The position numbers and the translations under genes are program-made. Below, in pieces: positions 1,877 through 15,872 of a DNA stretch of 20,580 nucleotides. This DNA comes from a virus. Lineage: Duplodnaviria; Heunggongvirae; Uroviricota; Caudoviricetes. The notes beneath the pieces were generated by a model that was not told where the DNA came from, ran no database searches, and worked only from the letters and a program-made list of their open reading frames with translations. How positions within the stretch are numbered: the stretch's first letter is position 1; the number at the start of each line of letters is the position of its first letter. The stretch lies in the IMG/VR virus record IMGVR_UViG_2737471827_000003, positions 1 to 20,580 of that record; one strand, given 5' to 3'.

Positions 1877-1906
1877 GTAAGCGACTCGTCAGAACCGTAT
1901 TGATAT

Positions 1907-3478
1907 TTACTGAGAGCTCAGATCAACTTTCCAGGGCAACAGATCGCGTACCCGGTTTGCCGGCCAGTCCTGGATATGTTCAATGACGTAACGCAGCCAC
2001 TTTTCTGGCTCCACATTGTTCAGACGGCATGTGCCGATCAGCGAGTACAACACCGCCGCATGTTCACCACCGCTGTCGGAACCCGCGAACATCCAGTTTT
2101 TCCGGCCTACGGCCACTCCCCGTAAGGCGTTCTCTGCGATGTTGTTGTCGATTTCCACCCAGCCATTACTGCAGTACACGTTCAGTGCATCCCACTGTTT
2201 CAGCAGGTATGCGAACGCTTTTGCCGTATCTGAGTGACGCGACAGTGTTTTCATCTGTTGCTGTATCCAGTCATACAGTGACTGCATCAGTGGCGCGGCT
2301 CTGGCTTTTCTTGCCGCCAGACGCTGTTCTGCTGAACAGCCCCGGACCTCTGCCTCGATGGCATACAGTTCACCGATACGCTGCAGGGCTTCCGTGGTGA
2401 TGTAGGTGGACGCTCTTGCATGCACATCGTGGATTTTTCTCCGGGCATGAGCCATACACGCGGCTTCCGTTATTCTGCCGGATTCGTATAACGCCCGGTA
2501 ACCACCGTAAGCATCGGCCTGAAGCACACCGCTGTAACCGGCCAGGTGATTTTGTGGATGGATACCTTTCCGGTCCGGACTGTACGCGAACCAGACCGCC
2601 GGGGGCATCTGTGAACCGGCGTTACGGTCATCACGGACGTAGACCCACAGCCGGGCTGTCCGGGTTTTACCGCTGCCCGGCTCCTGGACCGGGACGGGGA
2701 TATCATCAGCATGGACTTTACCGGGCATCAGCACATACTGGCGCAGGACGTCATACAGCGGCTCCAGCAGTTCAGCAACAGCACCTGTCCAGCGCCCCAG
2801 TGTGGCACGGCTCAGCTCCACTCCCTGACGACGGTATATTTCTGACTGGCGGTATAACGGCAGATGGTCTGCATATTTCCCGGTGACAACATGGGCCAGA
2901 AGCCCCGCTCCGGCATAACTGCGTGCAATGGGTTTTGAAGGTACTGGTGCCTGCACGATATGGTCGCACCGGCAACAGGCCTGTTTCGGACGTTGTGTTT
3001 CGATAACCTTAAAGGCGCTGCTGATAAGCTCCAGTTGCTCTGACACATCACATCCCAGAGAACTGAGTTCACCACCACAGGCAGGACAGCATTCCTCTTC
3101 CGGCCGGATAACCCGGGTTTCACGGGGAAGTGAGGCCGGTAACGGTTTACGGGCTGAAGACTGGCGCAGGGCGGATGGCAGTACCGGGTCATATTGCTCA
3201 CCCAGCGTTTCCGCCATTTCTTCCTGAAGTGCGCTGATTCGCTCCTGTGCTTCCTGTATCTGCCGTTCGGTTTTTGCACGAAGTTTTTCTGAGCTTTTAC
3301 CGAACTGCATACGTTGCAGTTTCGCAACCAGCGCCTTCAGCCGGTTGATTTCGGAAGCATAAGCCGCCACCCGCTGTGAGAGCAGGCGGTTGTATTCAGC
3401 CATCTGGCGGATGGTGTCCTGTTGCGTCTGCAACAGTGCCCGCAGGCGGGCGTTCTCATGAGCAAGTGAGGTGTCCAT
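1907..3478 (-). CDS. IS66-family transposase (third and largest ORF of the element)
   Basis: 523 aa with an N-terminal coiled-coil/leucine-zipper region, a CxxC...CxxC cluster, and a central/C-terminal region typical of IS66 TnpC-type transposases. Confidence 0.85.
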
Positions 3479-3497
3479 ATCCTCACTTTACAACGGG

Positions 3498-3845
3498 TTA
3501 TATGCGGATTCCAGCGCGTTCCGTTCGTTTCGGGTGCTTCCAGTTGATACCTTCAAGAAGCATGGATAACTGAGCCGGAGTAAGGTGCACCTTGCCGTCA
3601 CGGGTGACTGGCCAGACGAAGCGGCCCCGCTCCAGGCGTTTGGTGAAGAGGCACAGTCCGTCACTGTCAGCCCACAACACTTTTATCTGGTCACCCCGGC
3701 GTCCGCGGAAGATGAACAGGTGTCCGGAGAACGGGTCATCCTTCAGGACGTTCTGAACTTTTGATGCCAGGCCGTTAAAGCCATTTCGCATATCGGTGAT
3801 ACCTGCAACCAGCCAGATACGCGAACCTGCAGGGAGAGATATCAT
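3498..3845 (-). CDS. IS66-family accessory protein, Orf2/TnpB-like
   Basis: 115 aa, MISLPAGSRIWLVAGITDMRNGFNGLA...; conserved IS66 Orf2 signature; start overlaps the upstream ORF (ATGA). Confidence 0.85.
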   Translation of the reverse strand: MISLPAGSRIWLVAGITDMRNGFNGLASKVQNVLKDDPFSGHLFIFRGRRGDQIKVLWADSDGLCLFTKRLERGRFVWPVTRDGKVHLTPAQLSMLLEGINWKHPKRTERAGIRI

Positions 3846-4522
3846 CAGTGGCTGCTCCCTTTTATTTCGCGGATAAGTGTCTGTAATAACGCCGGCGTCA
3901 GTTTACCTTTAAGCCTGAGAGTTCCGGCCGGCAGAACCAGCTCACAACACAGACTGTCGGACGGTGTATTTATCTGCTCTGGTTCCTGTGCGGGGGCCGG
4001 GATTTTATTATCCGGCTCCGGCGTTAACGTCACGGGAAGCAGTGCCGGCATATTTTTTCCGGAAGGCAGCAGGCCACCTTTCCGGTATTGATGGCGCCAG
4101 TTGAAGAGCAGGTTATCGTTGATTCCGTTTTCCCGGGCGATCTGCGCCACACAGGCTCCGGGCTGCAGTGACTGCTCCACTAAGGCGATTTTAAACTCAT
4201 AAGGGAAGTTGGGCCGCCGGGGACGTTTTTTTACCACGGGGGCTTCGGATATAACGGTGCTTTCAGGACGTACGACTGGTACCGTGGAAAATTGTCCGTA
4301 AAGGCAGGCATCAAGTTCCTGCTCCGACATGCCTGCGGGCAAAGGCCACGAAAGGCCAGCTCTCCGAAAGCGCACGAACATACTACAAACTGTTGATTTT
4401 GGTACACCCAGGCGACGCCCGGCCACAACCCGGGGTAAATGTTCTTCAAAGTGAAGACGTAAAGCTTCAGTGATCCAGGTCCGGTGTTTCATACGATAGT
4501 GTCCATTAAAAATGATGGACAT
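3845..4522 (-). CDS. IS66-family accessory protein, Orf1/TnpA-like, with an N-terminal HTH-like extension (true start uncertain)
   Basis: C-terminal part ...RRPNFPYEFKIALVEQSLQPGACVAQIARENGINDNLLFNWRHQYRKG resembles IS66 Orf1. The 225-aa longest ORF is longer than typical, so an internal start is possible. Confidence 0.65.
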   Translation of the reverse strand: MSIIFNGHYRMKHRTWITEALRLHFEEHLPRVVAGRRLGVPKSTVCSMFVRFRRAGLSWPLPAGMSEQELDACLYGQFSTVPVVRPESTVISEAPVVKKRPRRPNFPYEFKIALVEQSLQPGACVAQIARENGINDNLLFNWRHQYRKGGLLPSGKNMPALLPVTLTPEPDNKIPAPAQEPEQINTPSDSLCCELVLPAGTLRLKGKLTPALLQTLIREIKGSSH

Positions 4523-4575
4523 TATTTTTGTAGAGCCGGAGGAAACAGACCAGACGGTTTAAATGAGCCGGTTAC

Positions 4576-4583
4576 GGTGGAGG
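4576..4583. repeat. Target-site duplication (right copy) GGTGGAGG
   Basis: Identical to 1869-1876. Confidence 0.8.
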
Positions 4584-4659: not shown

Positions 4660-4735
4660 GGCCCTTTAGCTCAGAGGTGAGAGCGAGCGACTCATAATCG
4701 CCAGGTCGCTGGTTCAAATCCAGCAAGGGCCACCA
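4660..4735 (+). tRNA. tRNA-Ile2-like (anticodon CAU, presumably lysidine-modified; formally Met by anticodon)
   Basis: Cloverleaf folded by hand: acceptor GGCCCTT/AAGGGCC, anticodon loop CTCATAA, T-loop TTCAAAT, encoded CCA. Overall strongly resembles E. coli ileX-type tRNA (recalled from memory). Confidence 0.75.
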
Positions 4736-4736
4736 A

Positions 4737-4813
4737 CCGCCACTAGCTCATCAGGAAAGAGCGTCAACCCTTTAAGTTGAGTGTGCGAGGTTCGAGTCCC
4801 CGGTGGCGGTCCA
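4737..4813 (+). tRNA. tRNA, isotype uncertain (anticodon loop CCUUUAA; nominal anticodon UUU, but C at position 33 is atypical)
   Basis: Acceptor CCGCCAC/GTGGCGG, D-stem GCTC/GAGC, anticodon stem TCAAC/GTTGA, T-loop TTCGAGT, encoded CCA; 77 nt. One A:C mismatch in the T-stem. Confidence 0.6.
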
Positions 4814-4815
4814 GT

Positions 4816-4891
<76 letters not shown>

Positions 4892-4894
4892 TAT

Positions 4895-4969
<75 letters not shown>

Positions 4970-4975
4970 GTTAGA

Positions 4976-5021
4976 GTCTTTCAGTCTGCGATGATGGGAA
5001 ATCCCGGAGTGACTGAAAGAC
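4976..5021. repeat. Inverted repeat, 11-bp arms (GTCTTTCAGTC / GACTGAAAGAC) around a 24-nt loop
   Basis: The arms are exact reverse complements (4976-4986 and 5011-5021); the loop contains GGGAAATCCC. Confidence 0.7.
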
Positions 5022-5028
5022 GTTTAAG

Positions 5029-5100
5029 TTATGAATGATCGCTTTTTTTGCAAAATTGCTGTGCAGAAATACTAACCTTCGGGCAGGCGATCATTCATAA
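5029..5100. repeat. Perfect 14-bp inverted repeat (TTATGAATGATCGC / GCGATCATTCATAA) separated by 44 nt
   Basis: Exact reverse-complement arms at 5029-5042 and 5087-5100. Confidence 0.7.
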
Positions 5101-5176
5101 GCACTCTGCTTTTATTCCGATTAACTGTGGGTGGTTTGTTGGATAGAGTGCTTCCCTTTCTGTATATATCGTTTCG

Positions 5177-5200
5177 CCCGCTTTTGCGGGTTTTTCTTTT
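5177..5200 (+). terminator. Rho-independent terminator-like hairpin upstream of the holin gene
   Basis: Stem CCCGC, loop TTTT, stem GCGGG, followed by TTTTTCTTTT. Confidence 0.6.
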
Positions 5201-5260
5201 CAAATCCCTTTCATTTCTCAGTGTAAAACTACGCCATCCGTTATTTGCGGAGGTGAGGCT

Positions 5261-5476
5261 ATGAAATCCATGGACAAAATTTCAACGGGCATTGCCTATG
5301 GCACCTCCGCAGGCAGTGCTGGCTACTGGTTTTTACAGTGGCTTGATCAGGTCAGTCCGTCACAGTGGGCTGCGATTGGTGTGCTGGGGAGTCTGGTTCT
5401 GGGCTTCCTGACTTATCTGACAAATCTGTACTTCAAAATCAGAGAAGACAAGCGTAAGGCTGCACGGGGAGAGTAA
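5261..5476 (+). CDS. S: Class II holin (pinholin), phage 21 S-like, with dual-start motif M1-K-S-M4
   Basis: 71 aa [30 protein letters not shown]...[35 protein letters not shown], close to the phage 21 S holin as recalled; two transmembrane segments; preceded by GGAGG. Confidence 0.9.
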
Positions 5477-5480
5477 TTCA

Positions 5481-5832
5481 ATGACTCAAAACTATGAACT
5501 GATTGTGAAAGGGATCCGCAATTTTGAGAATAAAGTTACGGTAACTTTAGCGTTACGGGACAAAAAAACGCTTTGACGGTGAAATTTTTGACCTGGACAT
5601 CTCGCTGGACCGTGTTGAAGGTGCCGCGCTGGAGTTTTATGAGGCAGCAGCCAGAAGGAGCATCAGACAGGTCTTCCTGGATGTTGCTGCCGGGTTATGT
5701 GAAGGGGATGAGCAGTCGCCGGAAAAGCGCCCCGTAATTTTAGATGCGCAGAATGTGTGGATAACCTACAAAGGAAAGCTACCAGGAAGAATTACTGGTT
5801 CTCTGAAGACTCCTCCGGAATCACAACCTTAA
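5481..5832 (+). pseudogene. Hypothetical lysis-cassette ORF interrupted by a frameshift in an A7 tract (5562-5568); the two halves together would give about 116 aa
   Basis: Frame 0: ATG 5481 ... MTQNYELIVKGIRNFENKVTVTLALRDKKTL, stop TGA at 5574-5576. The frame offset by one continues without a usable start codon: DGEIFDLDISLDRVEGAALEFYEAAARRSIRQVFLDVAAGLCEGDEQSPEKRPVILDAQNVWITYKGKLPGRITGSLKTPPESQP, stop TAA at 5830-5832. Both pieces fall below the ORF-track threshold. Confidence 0.6.
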
Positions 5833-5895
5833 GTCACTGACCGGAACAGATAAACCTGTCCGTGGGCAGAAACCGATAAATCCTGATAAATATCC

Positions 5896-6429
5896 ATGAA
5901 CGCAAAAATCAGATACGGCCTGTCGGCTGCCGTTCTGGCACTGATTGCCGTCGGTGCGCTCGCGCCTGATATTCTCGACCAGTTTCTGGATGAAAAAGAA
6001 GGTAACCACACAACGGCATACCGCGATGGGTCCGGCATCTGGACCATCTGTCGGGGTGCCACGATGGTGGATGGAAAACCCGTTTTTCCCGGTATGAAAC
6101 TGTCGAAGGAAAAATGCGACCAGGTCAACGCCATTGAGCGTGATAAGGCGCTGGCATGGGTGGAGCGCAATATTAAAGTACCACTGACCGAACCACAAAA
6201 AGCGGGTATCGCGTCATTTTGTCCCTATAACATTGGCCCCGGTAAGTGTTTTCCGTCGACGTTTTATAAGCGGCTGAATGCCGGTGATCGTAAGGGCGCA
6301 TGCGAGGCGATTCGCTGGTGGATAAAAGATGGTGGGCGCGATTGCCGCATACGTTCAAATAACTGCTATGGACAGGTTATTCGTCGTGACCAGGAAAGCG
6401 CATTAGCCTGTTGGGGGATAGATCAGTGA
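5896..6429 (+). CDS. R: Endolysin, T4-lysozyme-type (GH24) with N-terminal SAR (signal-anchor-release) domain
   Basis: 177 aa; weakly hydrophobic Ala/Gly-rich N-terminus ([17 protein letters not shown]) followed by a catalytic E...D...T spacing ([22 protein letters not shown]); paired with a pinholin. Confidence 0.9.
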
Positions 6430-6893
6430 GCAGAGTCGCCGCGATTATTTATGCTCTGGTTATCTGCATCATCGTCTGCCTGTCGTGGGCGGTCAATCAT
6501 TACCGTGATAACGCCATCGCCTACAAAGAACAGCGTGATAAAAAAGTCAGTGAGCTGAAGCTGGCGATCGCCACCATCGCTGACATGCAGCAGCGTCAGC
6601 GTGATGTTGCTGCGCTCGATGCAAAGTACTCGAGAGAATTAGCCAATGCGCAAGCTGAAAATGAAACTCTGCGCGCTGATGTTGCCGCTGGCCGTAAGCG
6701 CCTGCGGGTCAATGCCAGTTGCTCCGCAGCCGTGCGTGAAGCCACCGGACCCACCAGCGTGGATAATGCAACCATCCCCCGACTGGCAGACACCGCTGAA
6801 CGGGATTATTTCACCCTCAGAGACCGATTGATGACGATGCAGATGCAACTGGAAGGGGCGCAGGAATATATCCGCACTCAGTGCATTAAGTAG
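6426..6893 (+). CDS. Rz: Spanin inner-membrane subunit Rz (i-spanin)
   Basis: Translation from GTG 6426, (M)[37 protein letters not shown]..., is near-identical in pattern to lambda Rz; overlaps the endolysin stop. Confidence 0.85.
6646..6831 (+). CDS. Rz1: Spanin outer-membrane lipoprotein Rz1 (o-spanin), nested inside Rz in another frame
   Basis: 61 aa [61 protein letters not shown]; lipobox-like LAVSAC and proline-rich, lambda Rz1-like. Confidence 0.85.
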
Positions 6894-6935
6894 CCTTTTT
6901 ATCGTGGTAAACATTTCGCAGGGTATGAGGTATTT

Positions 6936-7286
6936 ATGCCATCACGAATCCCACGCGCCTGCCGTAAGCGTGGATGTGCAGGTACAACCACAGACAGTTC
7001 TGGTTACTGCGATAAACATCGTGGCGAAGGATGGGTACAGCATCAACGCGGACTGAGCCGCCACCAGCGTGGCTATGGCTCGAAATGGGATGCCATACGT
7101 GCGCGCATACTGAAGCGTGATAATCATCTGTGTCAGAACTGCCTGCGCAATGGGAGAGTCGTTGAAGCCAGAACTGTGGACCACATCATTCCGAAAGCTC
7201 ATGGTGGCACGGATGCAGACAGTAACCTGCAGAGTCTGTGCTGGCCCTGTCATAAAGCAAAAACAGCGCGCGAACGCATCAATTGA
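6936..7286 (+). CDS. HNH endonuclease, phage packaging-associated
   Basis: 116 aa with CxxC...C...H, DHIIPKAHGG...N...LCWPCH (HNH motif); immediately upstream of the terminase genes. Confidence 0.85.
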   Translation: MPSRIPRACRKRGCAGTTTDSSGYCDKHRGEGWVQHQRGLSRHQRGYGSKWDAIRARILKRDNHLCQNCLRNGRVVEARTVDHIIPKAHGGTDADSNLQSLCWPCHKAKTARERIN

Positions 7287-7433: not shown

Positions 7434-7916
7434 ATGTCTGGACCCCCGAAAACCCCGCCACGCCTGCATTTGATACGAGGCAACCCCTCAAAGCGCCCCG
7501 TTAAAGACTCAAAAAAAACCGCTAAAAAGGATGAAAAAGGTCTCCCTAAAATTCCGCAACATTTAGGGGCGCAGGGGAAGTACTGGTTCAGGCGAATGGC
7601 AGAAGAACTGAATGCGGAAGGGATCATTTCTCAGCTTGATGCGCGTGCACTCGAGTTACTGGTGGAAGCCTACACCGAATACCGGCATCACTGCGAAACC
7701 CTCGATGTTGAGGGATATACCTACCGCACGGAAACGCAGAACGGTGATGTGCTGATTAAGGCACACCCCGCGGCGGCAATGAAAGCGGATGCCTGGAAGA
7801 GGATCCGGGCGATGCTTGCAGAGTTTGGCATGTCACCGGCAAGCCGGGCTAAAGTAAATATCGCCGGACCGGATGATGTCGATCCGCTGGCGGAGCTTTT
7901 AAAAGCGAGAGACTGA
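7434..7916 (+). CDS. Terminase small subunit (P27-family-like)
   Basis: 160 aa with a basic N-terminus, directly upstream of and overlapping the large terminase. Confidence 0.8.
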   Translation: MSGPPKTPPRLHLIRGNPSKRPVKDSKKTAKKDEKGLPKIPQHLGAQGKYWFRRMAEELNAEGIISQLDARALELLVEAYTEYRHHCETLDVEGYTYRTETQNGDVLIKAHPAAAMKADAWKRIRAMLAEFGMSPASRAKVNIAGPDDVDPLAELLKARD

Positions 7917-9673
7917 TGGCAAAAGTGGCTGACGGGATCCGCTACGCCGAACGTGTTGTTGCAGGAGAAATTGTTGCTGGCGAATTTGTCCGTCTGGCCT
8001 GCCAGCGTTTTCTTGATGATCTGAAGTACGGCGAGAAGCGGGGGATTTATTTCAGTGAACCCCGTGCGCAGCACATCCTGAATTTCTACAAATTTGTGCC
8101 CCATGTGAAAGGGGCGCTGGCAGGCCAGCCCATTGAACTGATGGACTGGCATGTATTTATCCTCATTAATATTTTTGGTTTTGTCATTCCGCTGGTGAAT
8201 GAAGAGACCGGGGAAGTTGTCATGCGCAGCGATGGCAGCGGACGCCCGGTGATGGTGCGCCGGTTCCGGACGGCGTACAACGAAGTCGCCCGTAAAAACG
8301 CAAAATCAACCCTGTCATCGGGTATCGGTCTGTATATGACGGGGGCAGATGGTGAAGGTGGTGCTGAGGTGTATTCAGCCGCAACCACGCGTGATCAGGC
8401 CAGAATCGTGTTTGAAGACGCCAAAAATATGGTCAGAAAAGCCCGGTCGACACTCGGGCGGTTGTTTGACTTCAACAAGTTGGCGATTTACCAGGAGCAG
8501 AGCGCATCAAAATTTGAACCGCTTTCCTCGGATGCAAACAACCTGGACGGTCTGAACATCCACTGTGCCATTATTGATGAGCTGCATGCACATAAAACCC
8601 GCGACGTGTGGGACGTTCTGGAGACGGCAACCGGTGCCCGTCTGCAGTCTCTGTTATTTGGCATCACCACGGCTGGCTTTAACAAGGAAGGGATTTGTTA
8701 CGAGCAGCGTGATTACGCCATCAAGGTATTGCGAGGCTATAACAGCGACGTGGAGGGCGCGGTAAAAGACGACTCCTACTTTGCGATCATTTACACGCTC
8801 GATGAGGGAGATGATCCGTTTGATGAAACGGTCTGGCAGAAAGCGAATCCTGGCCTGGGCATCTGTAAACGCTGGGATGATCTGCGTCGTCTGGCGAAAA
8901 AAGCGAAGGAGCAGGTCTCTGCGCGGGTAAATTTTTTTACCAAACACATGAATGTGTGGGTCACTGCCGAATCTGCCTGGATGGATATGATTAAGTGGGA
9001 GAAGTGCGAATACATTGCTCCACAACATGAGCTGAAAACATATCCCATGTGGGTCGGCGTCGACCTTGCTCATAAGATTGATATCTGTGCGGCGGCAAAA
9101 CTCTGGCGAACCGATAACGGACATGTTCATGCTGATTTTAAATTCTGGCTTCCGGAAGGACGGCTGGAACGATGCTCGCGGCAGCAGGCAGAACTTTACC
9201 GGAAGTGGGCGGAGATGGATAAGCTCATCCTGACGGATGGTGATGTTATCGATCATGCTCAGATAAAAAGTGACTTACTGGAATGGATTGGCGGTGAAAA
9301 CCTCAGGGAACTGGGATTTGACCCGTGGAGCGCAATGCAGTTCAGCCTGGCACTGGCTGAAGAAGGGATACCGCTGGTGGAGGTTCCGCAGACGGTCCGC
9401 AATCTGTCAGAGGCCATGAAGGAAACGGAATCACTGGTTTATGCCGGGCGTTTCCATCACAGCAATCATCCGGTCATGAACTGGATGATGTCTAACGTTA
9501 CTGTAAAACCGGACAAAAACGACAACATCTTCCCGAATAAATCCACGCCTGAAGCCAAAATCGACGGCCCTGTTGCACTTTTTACGGCCATGAGCCGCTT
9601 TCTGGTAAATGGCGGGGACGTGAATGACTTTCTGTCCACGCTTGATCCTGATGAGGACCTGTTAATTCTGTGA
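7916..9673 (+). CDS. Terminase large subunit
   Basis: 585 aa, with an N-terminal ATPase region and a C-terminal nuclease region; position between small terminase and portal. Confidence 0.85.
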   Translation: MAKVADGIRYAERVVAGEIVAGEFVRLACQRFLDDLKYGEKRGIYFSEPRAQHILNFYKFVPHVKGALAGQPIELMDWHVFILINIFGFVIPLVNEETGEVVMRSDGSGRPVMVRRFRTAYNEVARKNAKSTLSSGIGLYMTGADGEGGAEVYSAATTRDQARIVFEDAKNMVRKARSTLGRLFDFNKLAIYQEQSASKFEPLSSDANNLDGLNIHCAIIDELHAHKTRDVWDVLETATGARLQSLLFGITTAGFNKEGICYEQRDYAIKVLRGYNSDVEGAVKDDSYFAIIYTLDEGDDPFDETVWQKANPGLGICKRWDDLRRLAKKAKEQVSARVNFFTKHMNVWVTAESAWMDMIKWEKCEYIAPQHELKTYPMWVGVDLAHKIDICAAAKLWRTDNGHVHADFKFWLPEGRLERCSRQQAELYRKWAEMDKLILTDGDVIDHAQIKSDLLEWIGGENLRELGFDPWSAMQFSLALAEEGIPLVEVPQTVRNLSEAMKETESLVYAGRFHHSNHPVMNWMMSNVTVKPDKNDNIFPNKSTPEAKIDGPVALFTAMSRFLVNGGDVNDFLSTLDPDEDLLIL

Positions 9674-12893: not shown

Positions 12894-12915
12894 CCGCGCC
12901 GACGCGGTTTTTTTT
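12894..12915 (+). terminator. Rho-independent terminator after the capsid gene
   Basis: Stem CCGCG, loop CCGA, stem CGCGG, then T8. A second perfect 7-bp hairpin GCCCGCA/TGCGGGC (12918-12937) follows, immediately upstream of the next RBS. Confidence 0.75.
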
Positions 12916-15167: not shown

Positions 15168-15539
15168 ATGGAAAAAGATTTAAAAACGCTGGCGCTGTCA
15201 ACGATGGCGGGGTTTCGTCATAAGACAGTGGTGGTACCGGAATGGGACGGCGCTACGGTAGTGCTGAGGGAGCCGTCAACTGAAGCCTGGCTACGCTGGC
15301 AGGAGATAGTCAGACAGGAAAAGGGGGAAACGCAGTTGTCCGTTTCGGTACGGGCCCGCCGGGATCTGGAAGCCGATGTTGAGTTGTTCATTGATGTTTT
15401 GTGCGATACCGGGATGAAAAAGGTATTTTCTGCGGGTGATCGGGAACAGGTACTGGCAGTGTATGGTCCTGTGCATACGCGACTATTGCGGCAGGCGCTG
15501 GAGCTGGTTACTGATGCCGGTGAGGTTAAAAAAAAATAG
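15168..15539 (+). CDS. Tail assembly chaperone (lambda G-like)
   Basis: 123 aa ending GEVKKK-stop on an A9 tract; followed by a T-like ORF in the -1 frame. Confidence 0.8.
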   Translation: MEKDLKTLALSTMAGFRHKTVVVPEWDGATVVLREPSTEAWLRWQEIVRQEKGETQLSVSVRARRDLEADVELFIDVLCDTGMKKVFSAGDREQVLAVYGPVHTRLLRQALELVTDAGEVKKK

Positions 15540-15841
15540 CCATGCCGGGGATGCGTTTTCTGATGATGCTGGCGCTCAGGATGGGGCGCACATTGTCAGA
15601 GTTACGCCGGGAAATGTCCGCATCAGAAATCATGATGTGGGCAGAATTTGACAGGTTCAGCCCGCTGGGAGACGAACGGGCTGATATCCGGGCTGCCCAG
15701 ATTGTTTCAGCTGTTTACGGTGCGCAGGGGGTCAAAGTGCCACTGAATGATGCGCTTCTTCAGTGGGAGAAGGAGCAGACAGAAGGCACCTCAGATCCAT
15801 TTGCCGGACTGGAAAATGCGCTTTTAACCGTATCTCAGTGA
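15168..15841 (+). CDS. Tail assembly chaperone fusion (GT-like), produced by a programmed -1 ribosomal frameshift on the A9 slippery tract (15528-15536)
   Basis: The -1 frame (15542..15841 in the ORF track) is open upstream to 15530, inside the A-run. A slip after the codon at 15531-15533 reads KKIAMPGMRF... in continuity. Confidence 0.7.
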
Positions 15842-15852
15842 GTCGACATAAC

Positions 15853-15872
15853 CGCTTCGGCGGTTTTTTTTT
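15853..15872 (+). terminator. Weak terminator/attenuator-like hairpin between the T-like ORF and the tape measure gene
   Basis: ACCGC, loop TTCG, GCGGT, followed by T9. Confidence 0.4.

Follow-up and report, generated by a model that had tools for sequence, protein, structure and literature searches.

A copy of the prophage gene ydfR probably inactivated by a one-base insertion in an adenine run of a lambdoid lysis cassette

Gene organization of the lysis region

The window analysed in this study is a stretch of 20,580 nucleotides, comprising positions 1 to 20,580 of the IMG/VR record IMGVR_UViG_2737471827_000003, which is classified in the Caudoviricetes. It contains a lambdoid lysis cassette on the plus strand. 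A class II (phage 21 S-type) holin of 71 amino acids is encoded at positions 5261–5476 (Pfam PF04971, E = 1.4e-35; annotated as 'class II holin family protein', WP_000839572.1, in relatives), and a lysozyme (endolysin) of 177 amino acids with a hydrophobic N-terminal segment is encoded at 5896–6429 (PF00959, E = 1.4e-24; lysozyme or rrrQ in relatives). Both genes are intact. The stop codon of the lysozyme gene is overlapped by the GTG start of an Rz-type spanin gene (6426–6893; PF03245, E = 1.3e-46), which corresponds to a 468-bp gene annotated as 'lysis protein' in relatives, and the list of open reading frames (ORFs) includes an Rz1-like lipoprotein ORF embedded in this Rz gene at 6646–6831. 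Between the holin and lysozyme genes lies a further ORF, at 5481–5832, the reading frame of which is interrupted. A promoter and terminator scan of positions 4900–7000 yielded nothing above the level expected from shuffled sequences.

Several other features of the window were recorded. Four phage-borne tRNA genes (4660–4969) are located just upstream of the lysis cassette, with the anticodons CAU, UUU (Lys), UGU (Thr) and UCC (Gly); the CAU tRNA was assigned to Met by ARAGORN and is annotated as tRNA-Ile in relatives. An Rfam scan of the whole window detected only these four tRNAs. Upstream of the tRNA cluster, a 2,699-bp IS66-family element is present on the minus strand at 1877–4575 (tnpC, 1907–3478; tnpB, 3498–3845; tnpA, 3845–4522), flanked by an 8-bp target duplication, GGTGGAGG, at 1869–1876 and 4576–4583. 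This element, which is absent from this position in relatives, is inserted between the tRNA cluster and the Q antiterminator gene, the latter accompanied by a terminator-like hairpin, and its position is therefore within the late transcription unit and upstream of the lysis genes. On the other side of the cassette, an HNH endonuclease gene (6936–7286) is located directly upstream of the genes for the P27-family small terminase subunit (7434–7916) and the large terminase (7916–9673), which is the usual arrangement of HK97-like packaging modules. In addition, the tail assembly chaperone ORF (15168–15539) has an A9 run (15528–15536) at its extreme 3' end; its product ends in GEVKKK, and the -1 frame from this run continues into the ORF for 'tail assembly protein T' (15542–15841). 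The arrangement resembles the G/GT programmed -1 frameshift that is classical in lambdoid tails, in this case on an A-run.

Structure of the interrupted ORF

The ATG of the interrupted ORF, at position 5481, is located 4 nt past the holin stop codon, and a GGAG-type ribosome-binding site is present in ACGGGGAGAGTAATTCAATG. The ORF that starts from this codon is only 31 codons long (MTQNYELIVKGIRNFENKVTVTLALRDKKTL) and ends at the TGA at 5574–5576, right after an A7 homopolymer at 5562–5568. This 5' fragment (5481–5576, plus strand) comprises 29 native codons followed by an out-of-frame ACG CTT and the TGA. The 3' part of the gene (5575–5832, plus strand) lies in frame +1 and has no start codon of its own. 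No stop codon interrupts the +1 frame between 5551 and the TAA at 5830–5832, and the 3' part consists of 85 codons (Asp32 to Pro116) and this TAA; the sole conceivable start in it is a GTG at 5755, which would yield only 25 amino acids. Removal of one A from the A7 run produces a single ORF of 116 amino acids, and addition of two produces one of 117. The sequence-only reading had described a homopolymer frameshift, reparable to a product of about 116 amino acids by one A fewer, and this description was confirmed both by reading the sequence and by the repaired ORF. In the intact allele, the run is A6 and is read as AAA AAA (Lys28 Lys29), and the A7 run is the site of the +1 insertion.

Two other ways of rescuing the gene were considered and rejected. 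A -1 slip on A AAA AAA would lead translation into frame 2, which is open to 5737 but is not the ydfR frame, and the only site for internal re-initiation is the GTG at 5755.

Identification of the ORF as a copy of ydfR

The repaired 116-amino-acid product showed a highly significant match to the Pfam family PF07041 (DUF1327), with a score of 144.3 bits (cut-off, 25) and an E value of 1.4e-42, and its residues 1–112 were aligned on positions 1–92 of the 93-position profile. It also matched PHROG 406 (positions 1–113 of 114) and PHROG 2091 over the full shared length, and all of the matching PHROGs are annotated as 'unknown function'. Because the match of the repaired product to PF07041 is full-length, the two halves represent one known gene and not a chance arrangement. 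Judged from its sequence, the broken ORF represents a copy of ydfR, a small gene that is very common in prophages of Escherichia coli. The product, which had not been recognized at first reading, can thus be named, and the homology search proposed at that time for the reconstructed protein returned an end-to-end family match. The 3' part of the gene also aligns with the intact YdfR proteins of relatives and phages. A search of 5.8 billion proteins identified 313 homologues, nearly all of which are from Escherichia or Shigella. In NCBIfam, no model was found for the repaired YdfR, and a sequence search of the PDB with YdfR returned nothing even at an E value of 10.

The presence of a gene between the holin and endolysin genes had been regarded as unusual in the sequence-only reading; it is instead common, with ydfR occupying this position in well above half of the complete E. 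coli genomes. A 740-bp query consisting of the holin gene, ydfR and the start of the lysozyme gene had matches in 4,831 of 5,426 complete E. coli genomes, and the annotation under the listed matches reads 'class II holin', 'YdfR family protein' and 'lysozyme', in this order. The 78-nt segment around the run was found in about 3,290 of the 5,426 genomes. The gene order is essD–ydfR–rrrQ in the Qin prophage of strain K-12, where ydfR lies between a class II holin gene of the essD/essQ type and the rrrQ lysozyme gene, and phages YYZ-2008 and mEp460 exhibit the same holin–YdfR–lysozyme order as the window. Furthermore, a YdfR homologue is encoded in 101 phage records, mostly of Stx-converting and lambdoid phages, and an intact ydfR occupies the same slot in viable lambdoid and Stx phages.

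The gene has a mosaic structure. When positions 5481–5750 of the window were compared with three other cassettes (L005, L007 and L002), the first ~270 nt of ydfR were found to be nearly identical between cassettes; the holin genes, the lysozyme genes and the 3' ends of ydfR in these cassettes are about 25% divergent or unalignable. These sequence comparisons suggest that the 5' module of ydfR may be either homogenized by recombination or strongly conserved, and that it may be combined with interchangeable C-terminal tails, yielding proteins of 103, 104, 114 and 116 amino acids. The protein database also contains entries, which may be real variants or the result of further indels or assembly artefacts: gene calls in which holin and YdfR are fused (PF04971 plus PF07041), long YdfR forms of 176–183 amino acids with an extra C-terminal region, and other forms with an internally duplicated N-terminal domain (entries P0016, P0032, P0040 and P0082, and P0021, P0044, P0087, P0072 and P0094, for the fused, long or duplicated forms).

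Run-length alleles among E. coli genomes

Alleles of the A-run were counted among complete E. coli genomes in which the 35-nt and 36-nt flanks of the window were exactly conserved. With these identical flanks, the run was A6 in 1,380 records, A7 in 22, A5 in two and A8 in none, so that about 98% of the alleles are A6. Whether homologous prophages carry A6 at this site was a question raised by the sequence-only reading, and A6 is indeed the prevailing state. Ten further strains of the OkiPb series showed one mismatch in a flank, and the single one of these that was fetched, OkiPb01676, carries A7. The gene was annotated by PGAP as 'YdfR family protein, frameshifted' in all 14 A7 records inspected (13 strains, including OkiPb01676), and none of the A7 alleles examined has lost the open 3' frame of ydfR. 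Among the other contigs sampled with these flanks, 121 are A6 (119 from IMG/VR and two from species-representative genomes) and one additional contig (mEp460) has AAAAAC. A7 was also found in two IMG/VR contigs and four metagenome contigs of diverse backgrounds, and ydfR is in frame in all 21 phage records.

The A7 records are partly redundant: nine share an identical cassette, three have identical flanking annotation and more derive from single strain series. Both A5 records likewise belong to one strain series. The excess of A7 over A5 (22 versus 2) was considered as evidence for leakiness of the A7 allele and was set aside because the A7 records collapse to few lineages.

Genetic backgrounds of the A7 allele

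The A7 allele was found on at least four different lysis-cassette backgrounds. Type I, to which the window belongs, has the tRNA cluster, the holin WP_000839572 and a 352-bp ydfR; this type was confirmed in QA-1986 630, AR_0089 and OkiPb01676, and the 33F4 group, FDN-4, VTB96937v, GPEC172, GPEC102 and S51 were assigned to it on the basis of a gap-free 740-bp match of 99.3–99.7%. Type II has a SASA esterase gene, the holin WP_000284510, a 316-bp ydfR and the lysozyme WP_001274711, and includes 042, APEC E19035, three '729' isolates, HCP5S3_I4, CB7453 (also OZ392432) and GPEC505-623. Type III (13P477T and E371) has a TolA-like gene, the essD product WP_000839561 and a 316-bp ydfR, and Type IV (TUM10008) has a SASA esterase gene, a 352-bp ydfR and the lysozyme WP_001092855.

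In Type II, the 1,125-bp A7 cassette is 100% identical in nine records, which represent eight isolates (CB7453 was deposited twice), three of them isolates of one strain, and the nearest eight A6 versions are 99.3–99.7% identical to it. The isolates with this identical cassette have human, poultry and pig sources and were collected on several continents, and such identity across dispersed isolates indicates that A7 is stably inherited. The first ~270 nt of ydfR show almost no informative SNPs among the four A7 backgrounds, which may therefore reflect either independent A6-to-A7 events or the recombination of one allele. Strain 042 was isolated in Lima in 1983, and its finished genome was obtained by dye-terminator sequencing at 8x (PMC2808357); therefore, the A7 allele is independent of long-read technology.

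The ydfR copy as a probable pseudogene

Taking these results together, we consider it very probable that the ydfR copy of the window is a late gene of a lambdoid prophage, from E. coli or one of its close relatives, and a pseudogene that arose from a single-base insertion in an A6 run, i.e. a real and heritable loss-of-function allele. Replication slippage would have converted the A6 that encodes Lys-Lys (AAA AAA) to A7 and would thereby have inactivated the gene. Ribosomes starting at the ATG at 5481 would translate the 29 native codons and Thr-Leu and then terminate at the TGA at 5574, and the remaining 85 codons, which have no start, would stay untranslated; it is this loss that would make the gene a pseudogene. 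The 31-residue product is presumably inactive, given that it lacks strand 3 and the two helices predicted by a model of low confidence. We infer that the loss of function of the A7 allele is complete, with the reservation that a low level of frame restoration could occur at the CUU UGA C stop or on the A7 run. The allele may have arisen on, or spread to, several prophage backgrounds, and its persistence would be explained if YdfR is dispensable for prophage carriage. The neighbouring holin, endolysin and spanin genes are most likely unaffected by the loss of ydfR, because they are intact and have their own starts, and because the lysozyme start is located 63 nt beyond the ydfR stop.

The sequence-only reading had left three options for the broken ORF. 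That of a genuine pseudogene has gained from the recurrence of A7 and from the 'frameshifted' calls by PGAP; that of a phase-variable gene has lost ground, with A8 absent and 98% of the alleles A6; and a sequencing error has become unlikely in view of 042, the relatives of the window prophage and the additional contigs.

The possibility of a sequencing or assembly error

If the strain truly carried A6 and an intact ydfR, the extra A would be a homopolymer miscall. In favour of this view, long-read indel errors classically occur in homopolymers, A6 greatly outnumbers A7 (1,380 versus 22 records), and several other A/T runs of the window show one-base length changes relative to the closest relative. 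However, those other differences in run length sit in T-runs that are intergenic where the annotation could be mapped, and no other gene has a broken ORF. The identical A7 is present in the closest relatives of the window prophage, in the dye-terminator-sequenced strain 042, in the nine genomes with the identical cassette and in six metagenome or IMG/VR contigs, and a run of seven is short for a systematic error in polished assemblies. We therefore regard an error as unlikely.

In the comparison with the closest prophage (QA-1986 630, also A7), all of the indels that could be placed against its annotation are intergenic, with a few indels falling in two stretches too divergent for clean alignment. 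The T-runs that differ from those of the closest relative prophage are located at 1826–1832 (T7 versus T6), 12908–12915 (T8 versus T7) and 15864–15872 (T9 versus T8). The first two are intergenic, and the third lies in a stretch without cleanly mappable annotation. These one-base differences are ordinary homopolymer length variation, and none of them breaks an ORF.

The possibility of residual expression by recoding

Another alternative to a pseudogene is a leaky or recoded gene, in which the A7 allele continues to give rise to full-length YdfR. Two routes could lead to this outcome. One is +1 ribosomal frameshifting at the stop of the truncated ORF, CUU UGA C (5571–5577; CTT at 5571–5573, TGA at 5574–5576 and C at 5577), which could yield a product of 116 amino acids with only R30T and F31L changed. 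The other is slippage of RNA polymerase on the A7 run. The predicted junction peptides are DKKTLDGEIFDLDISLDR for the +1 product and KRFDGEIFDLDISLDR for the slippage rescue. The two substitutions would affect the segment that varies most within the family, which a low-confidence model predicts to be a loop between strands 2 and 3, and the openness of the downstream frame in all of the A7 alleles is also consistent with residual expression. As for polymerase slippage, efficient transcriptional slippage in E. coli is known on runs of nine or more, and A7 is shorter than this.

The ribosomal route has a counterpart in the programmed +1 frameshift site of prfB, the listed elements of which include the shifty stop CUU UGA and a C at the fourth position (PMC13245932). 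The CUU UGA C heptanucleotide of the A7 copy is identical to that of prfB, and, as in prfB, tRNA-Leu would return translation to the downstream ydfR frame by slipping +1 from CUU to UUU. However, the prfB site also has an SD-like AGGGGG element 3 nt upstream and a UAU or UCU spacer codon, and the ydfR copy lacks both of these features. The sequence upstream of its CTT is GGGAC AAA AAA ACG, in which the sole G-rich patch ends 11 nt before the CTT and the spacer codon is ACG. In the prfB of Pseudomonas fluorescens, disruption of the SD-like element rendered RF2 barely detectable (PMC13245932). Moreover, the prfB-type configuration is not conserved among ydfR homologues; it is rare and derived, with about 98% of the alleles that have these flanks in frame as A6. 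The heptanucleotide is in fact what results when CGC TTT GAC of the intact gene is read one base out of frame.

On this evidence, the production of full-length YdfR from the A7 allele appears extremely unlikely. The more specific proposal that A7 represents a recoded ydfR of low expression, with +1 frameshifting at a few per cent and more when RF2 is limiting, would explain the persistence of A7 on several backgrounds with the downstream frame still open; judged from the sequence context, such a biologically meaningful recoding is very improbable. CUU UGA C is better regarded as an accidental stop context that may be weakly leaky at most.

The possibility of phase variation

High-frequency on/off switching of ydfR by slippage in the A-run, as in a contingency gene, is scarcely credible: although the lesion sits in a homopolymer, A7 on at least four cassette backgrounds could mean recurrent slippage and an A5 allele exists too, the run is short (6–7), its length is almost monomorphic (98% A6, no A8), the A7 allele is stably inherited in an identical cassette across unrelated strains, and the 121 other sampled contigs with these flanks are all A6, the 122nd having AAAAAC. 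Contingency loci are characterized by several tract lengths at appreciable frequency and by conservation of the tract across orthologues; at this site, two records are A5, 1,380 are A6, 22 are A7 and none is A8, and the run is not conserved in the family, being AAAGAA in K-12 and AAAAAC in mEp460 and absent from YYZ-2008.

Function of intact YdfR and significance of the allele

YdfR of K-12 was reported in 2026 to bind the catalytic N-terminal half of RNase E, on the basis of a two-hybrid screen, in which residues 1–72 were sufficient, and of co-purification (PMC13232886). RNA was also found to co-purify with the protein, and the transcriptome changed little when YdfR was overexpressed (PMC13232886). 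Judged from this one study of the K-12 homologue, intact YdfR is small and cytoplasmic, with the catalytic half of RNase E as a binding partner and RNA as a possible second one (PMC13232886). AlphaFold2 modelling of an intact 116-amino-acid homologue (P0002; alignment A2, 25 sequences) gave a mean pLDDT of 44.8 and a pTM of 0.40, which is too poor for a fold search.

The occurrence of an apparent null allele in about 1% of carriers, in widely dispersed strains, suggests that YdfR is dispensable for prophage carriage, a point that is relevant given the reported binding to RNase E (PMC13232886). The break in ydfR represents a loss-of-function allele that recurs or spreads and that has already been flagged by annotation pipelines. 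The ydfR family, its slot and the A7 allele itself are all in public annotation, and the finding is in this sense an ordinary one; its result is the assignment of an ORF left unrecognized at first reading to a known and very common prophage family, and its broader importance is small. The accidental CUU UGA C also provides a natural and easily tested example of an unstimulated shifty stop.

Comparison with known ydfR genes

A functional member of the YdfR family would be expected to have an uninterrupted ORF of about 103–116 amino acids. In the window copy, the frame is broken after codon 29 and stops at 5574–5576, and this interruption makes it a pseudogene copy of the family and not a functional member. 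YdfR of the K-12 Qin prophage (b1555, UniProt P76160) belongs to the same family, and its N-terminal ~75 residues are about 85–90% identical to those of the window's copy. The K-12 protein is intact, however, with 103 amino acids and a C-terminal tail unrelated to that of the window copy; its gene shares 4 nt with rrrQ, in contrast to the 63-nt spacer found before the lysozyme gene of the window, and it has AAAGAA in place of the A-run of the window gene.

The best matches to the window among complete RefSeq E. coli genomes show 85–91% coverage and 94–96% identity. NP447_RS14855 (QA-1986 630), AM468_RS22490 (AR_0089) and EC042_RS07115 (042) carry the same A7 allele in an identical 78-nt context and are annotated as frameshifted pseudogenes. 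The 042-type allele differs in its short (316-bp) 3' end and in its flanking genes, which are unlike those of the window. The prophage that carries NP447_RS14855 resembles the window's in having the tRNA cluster, the same holin protein, and the HNH and P27-family terminase genes downstream, and the window prophage is distinguished from these relatives by the additional IS66-family insertion upstream of the tRNA cluster.
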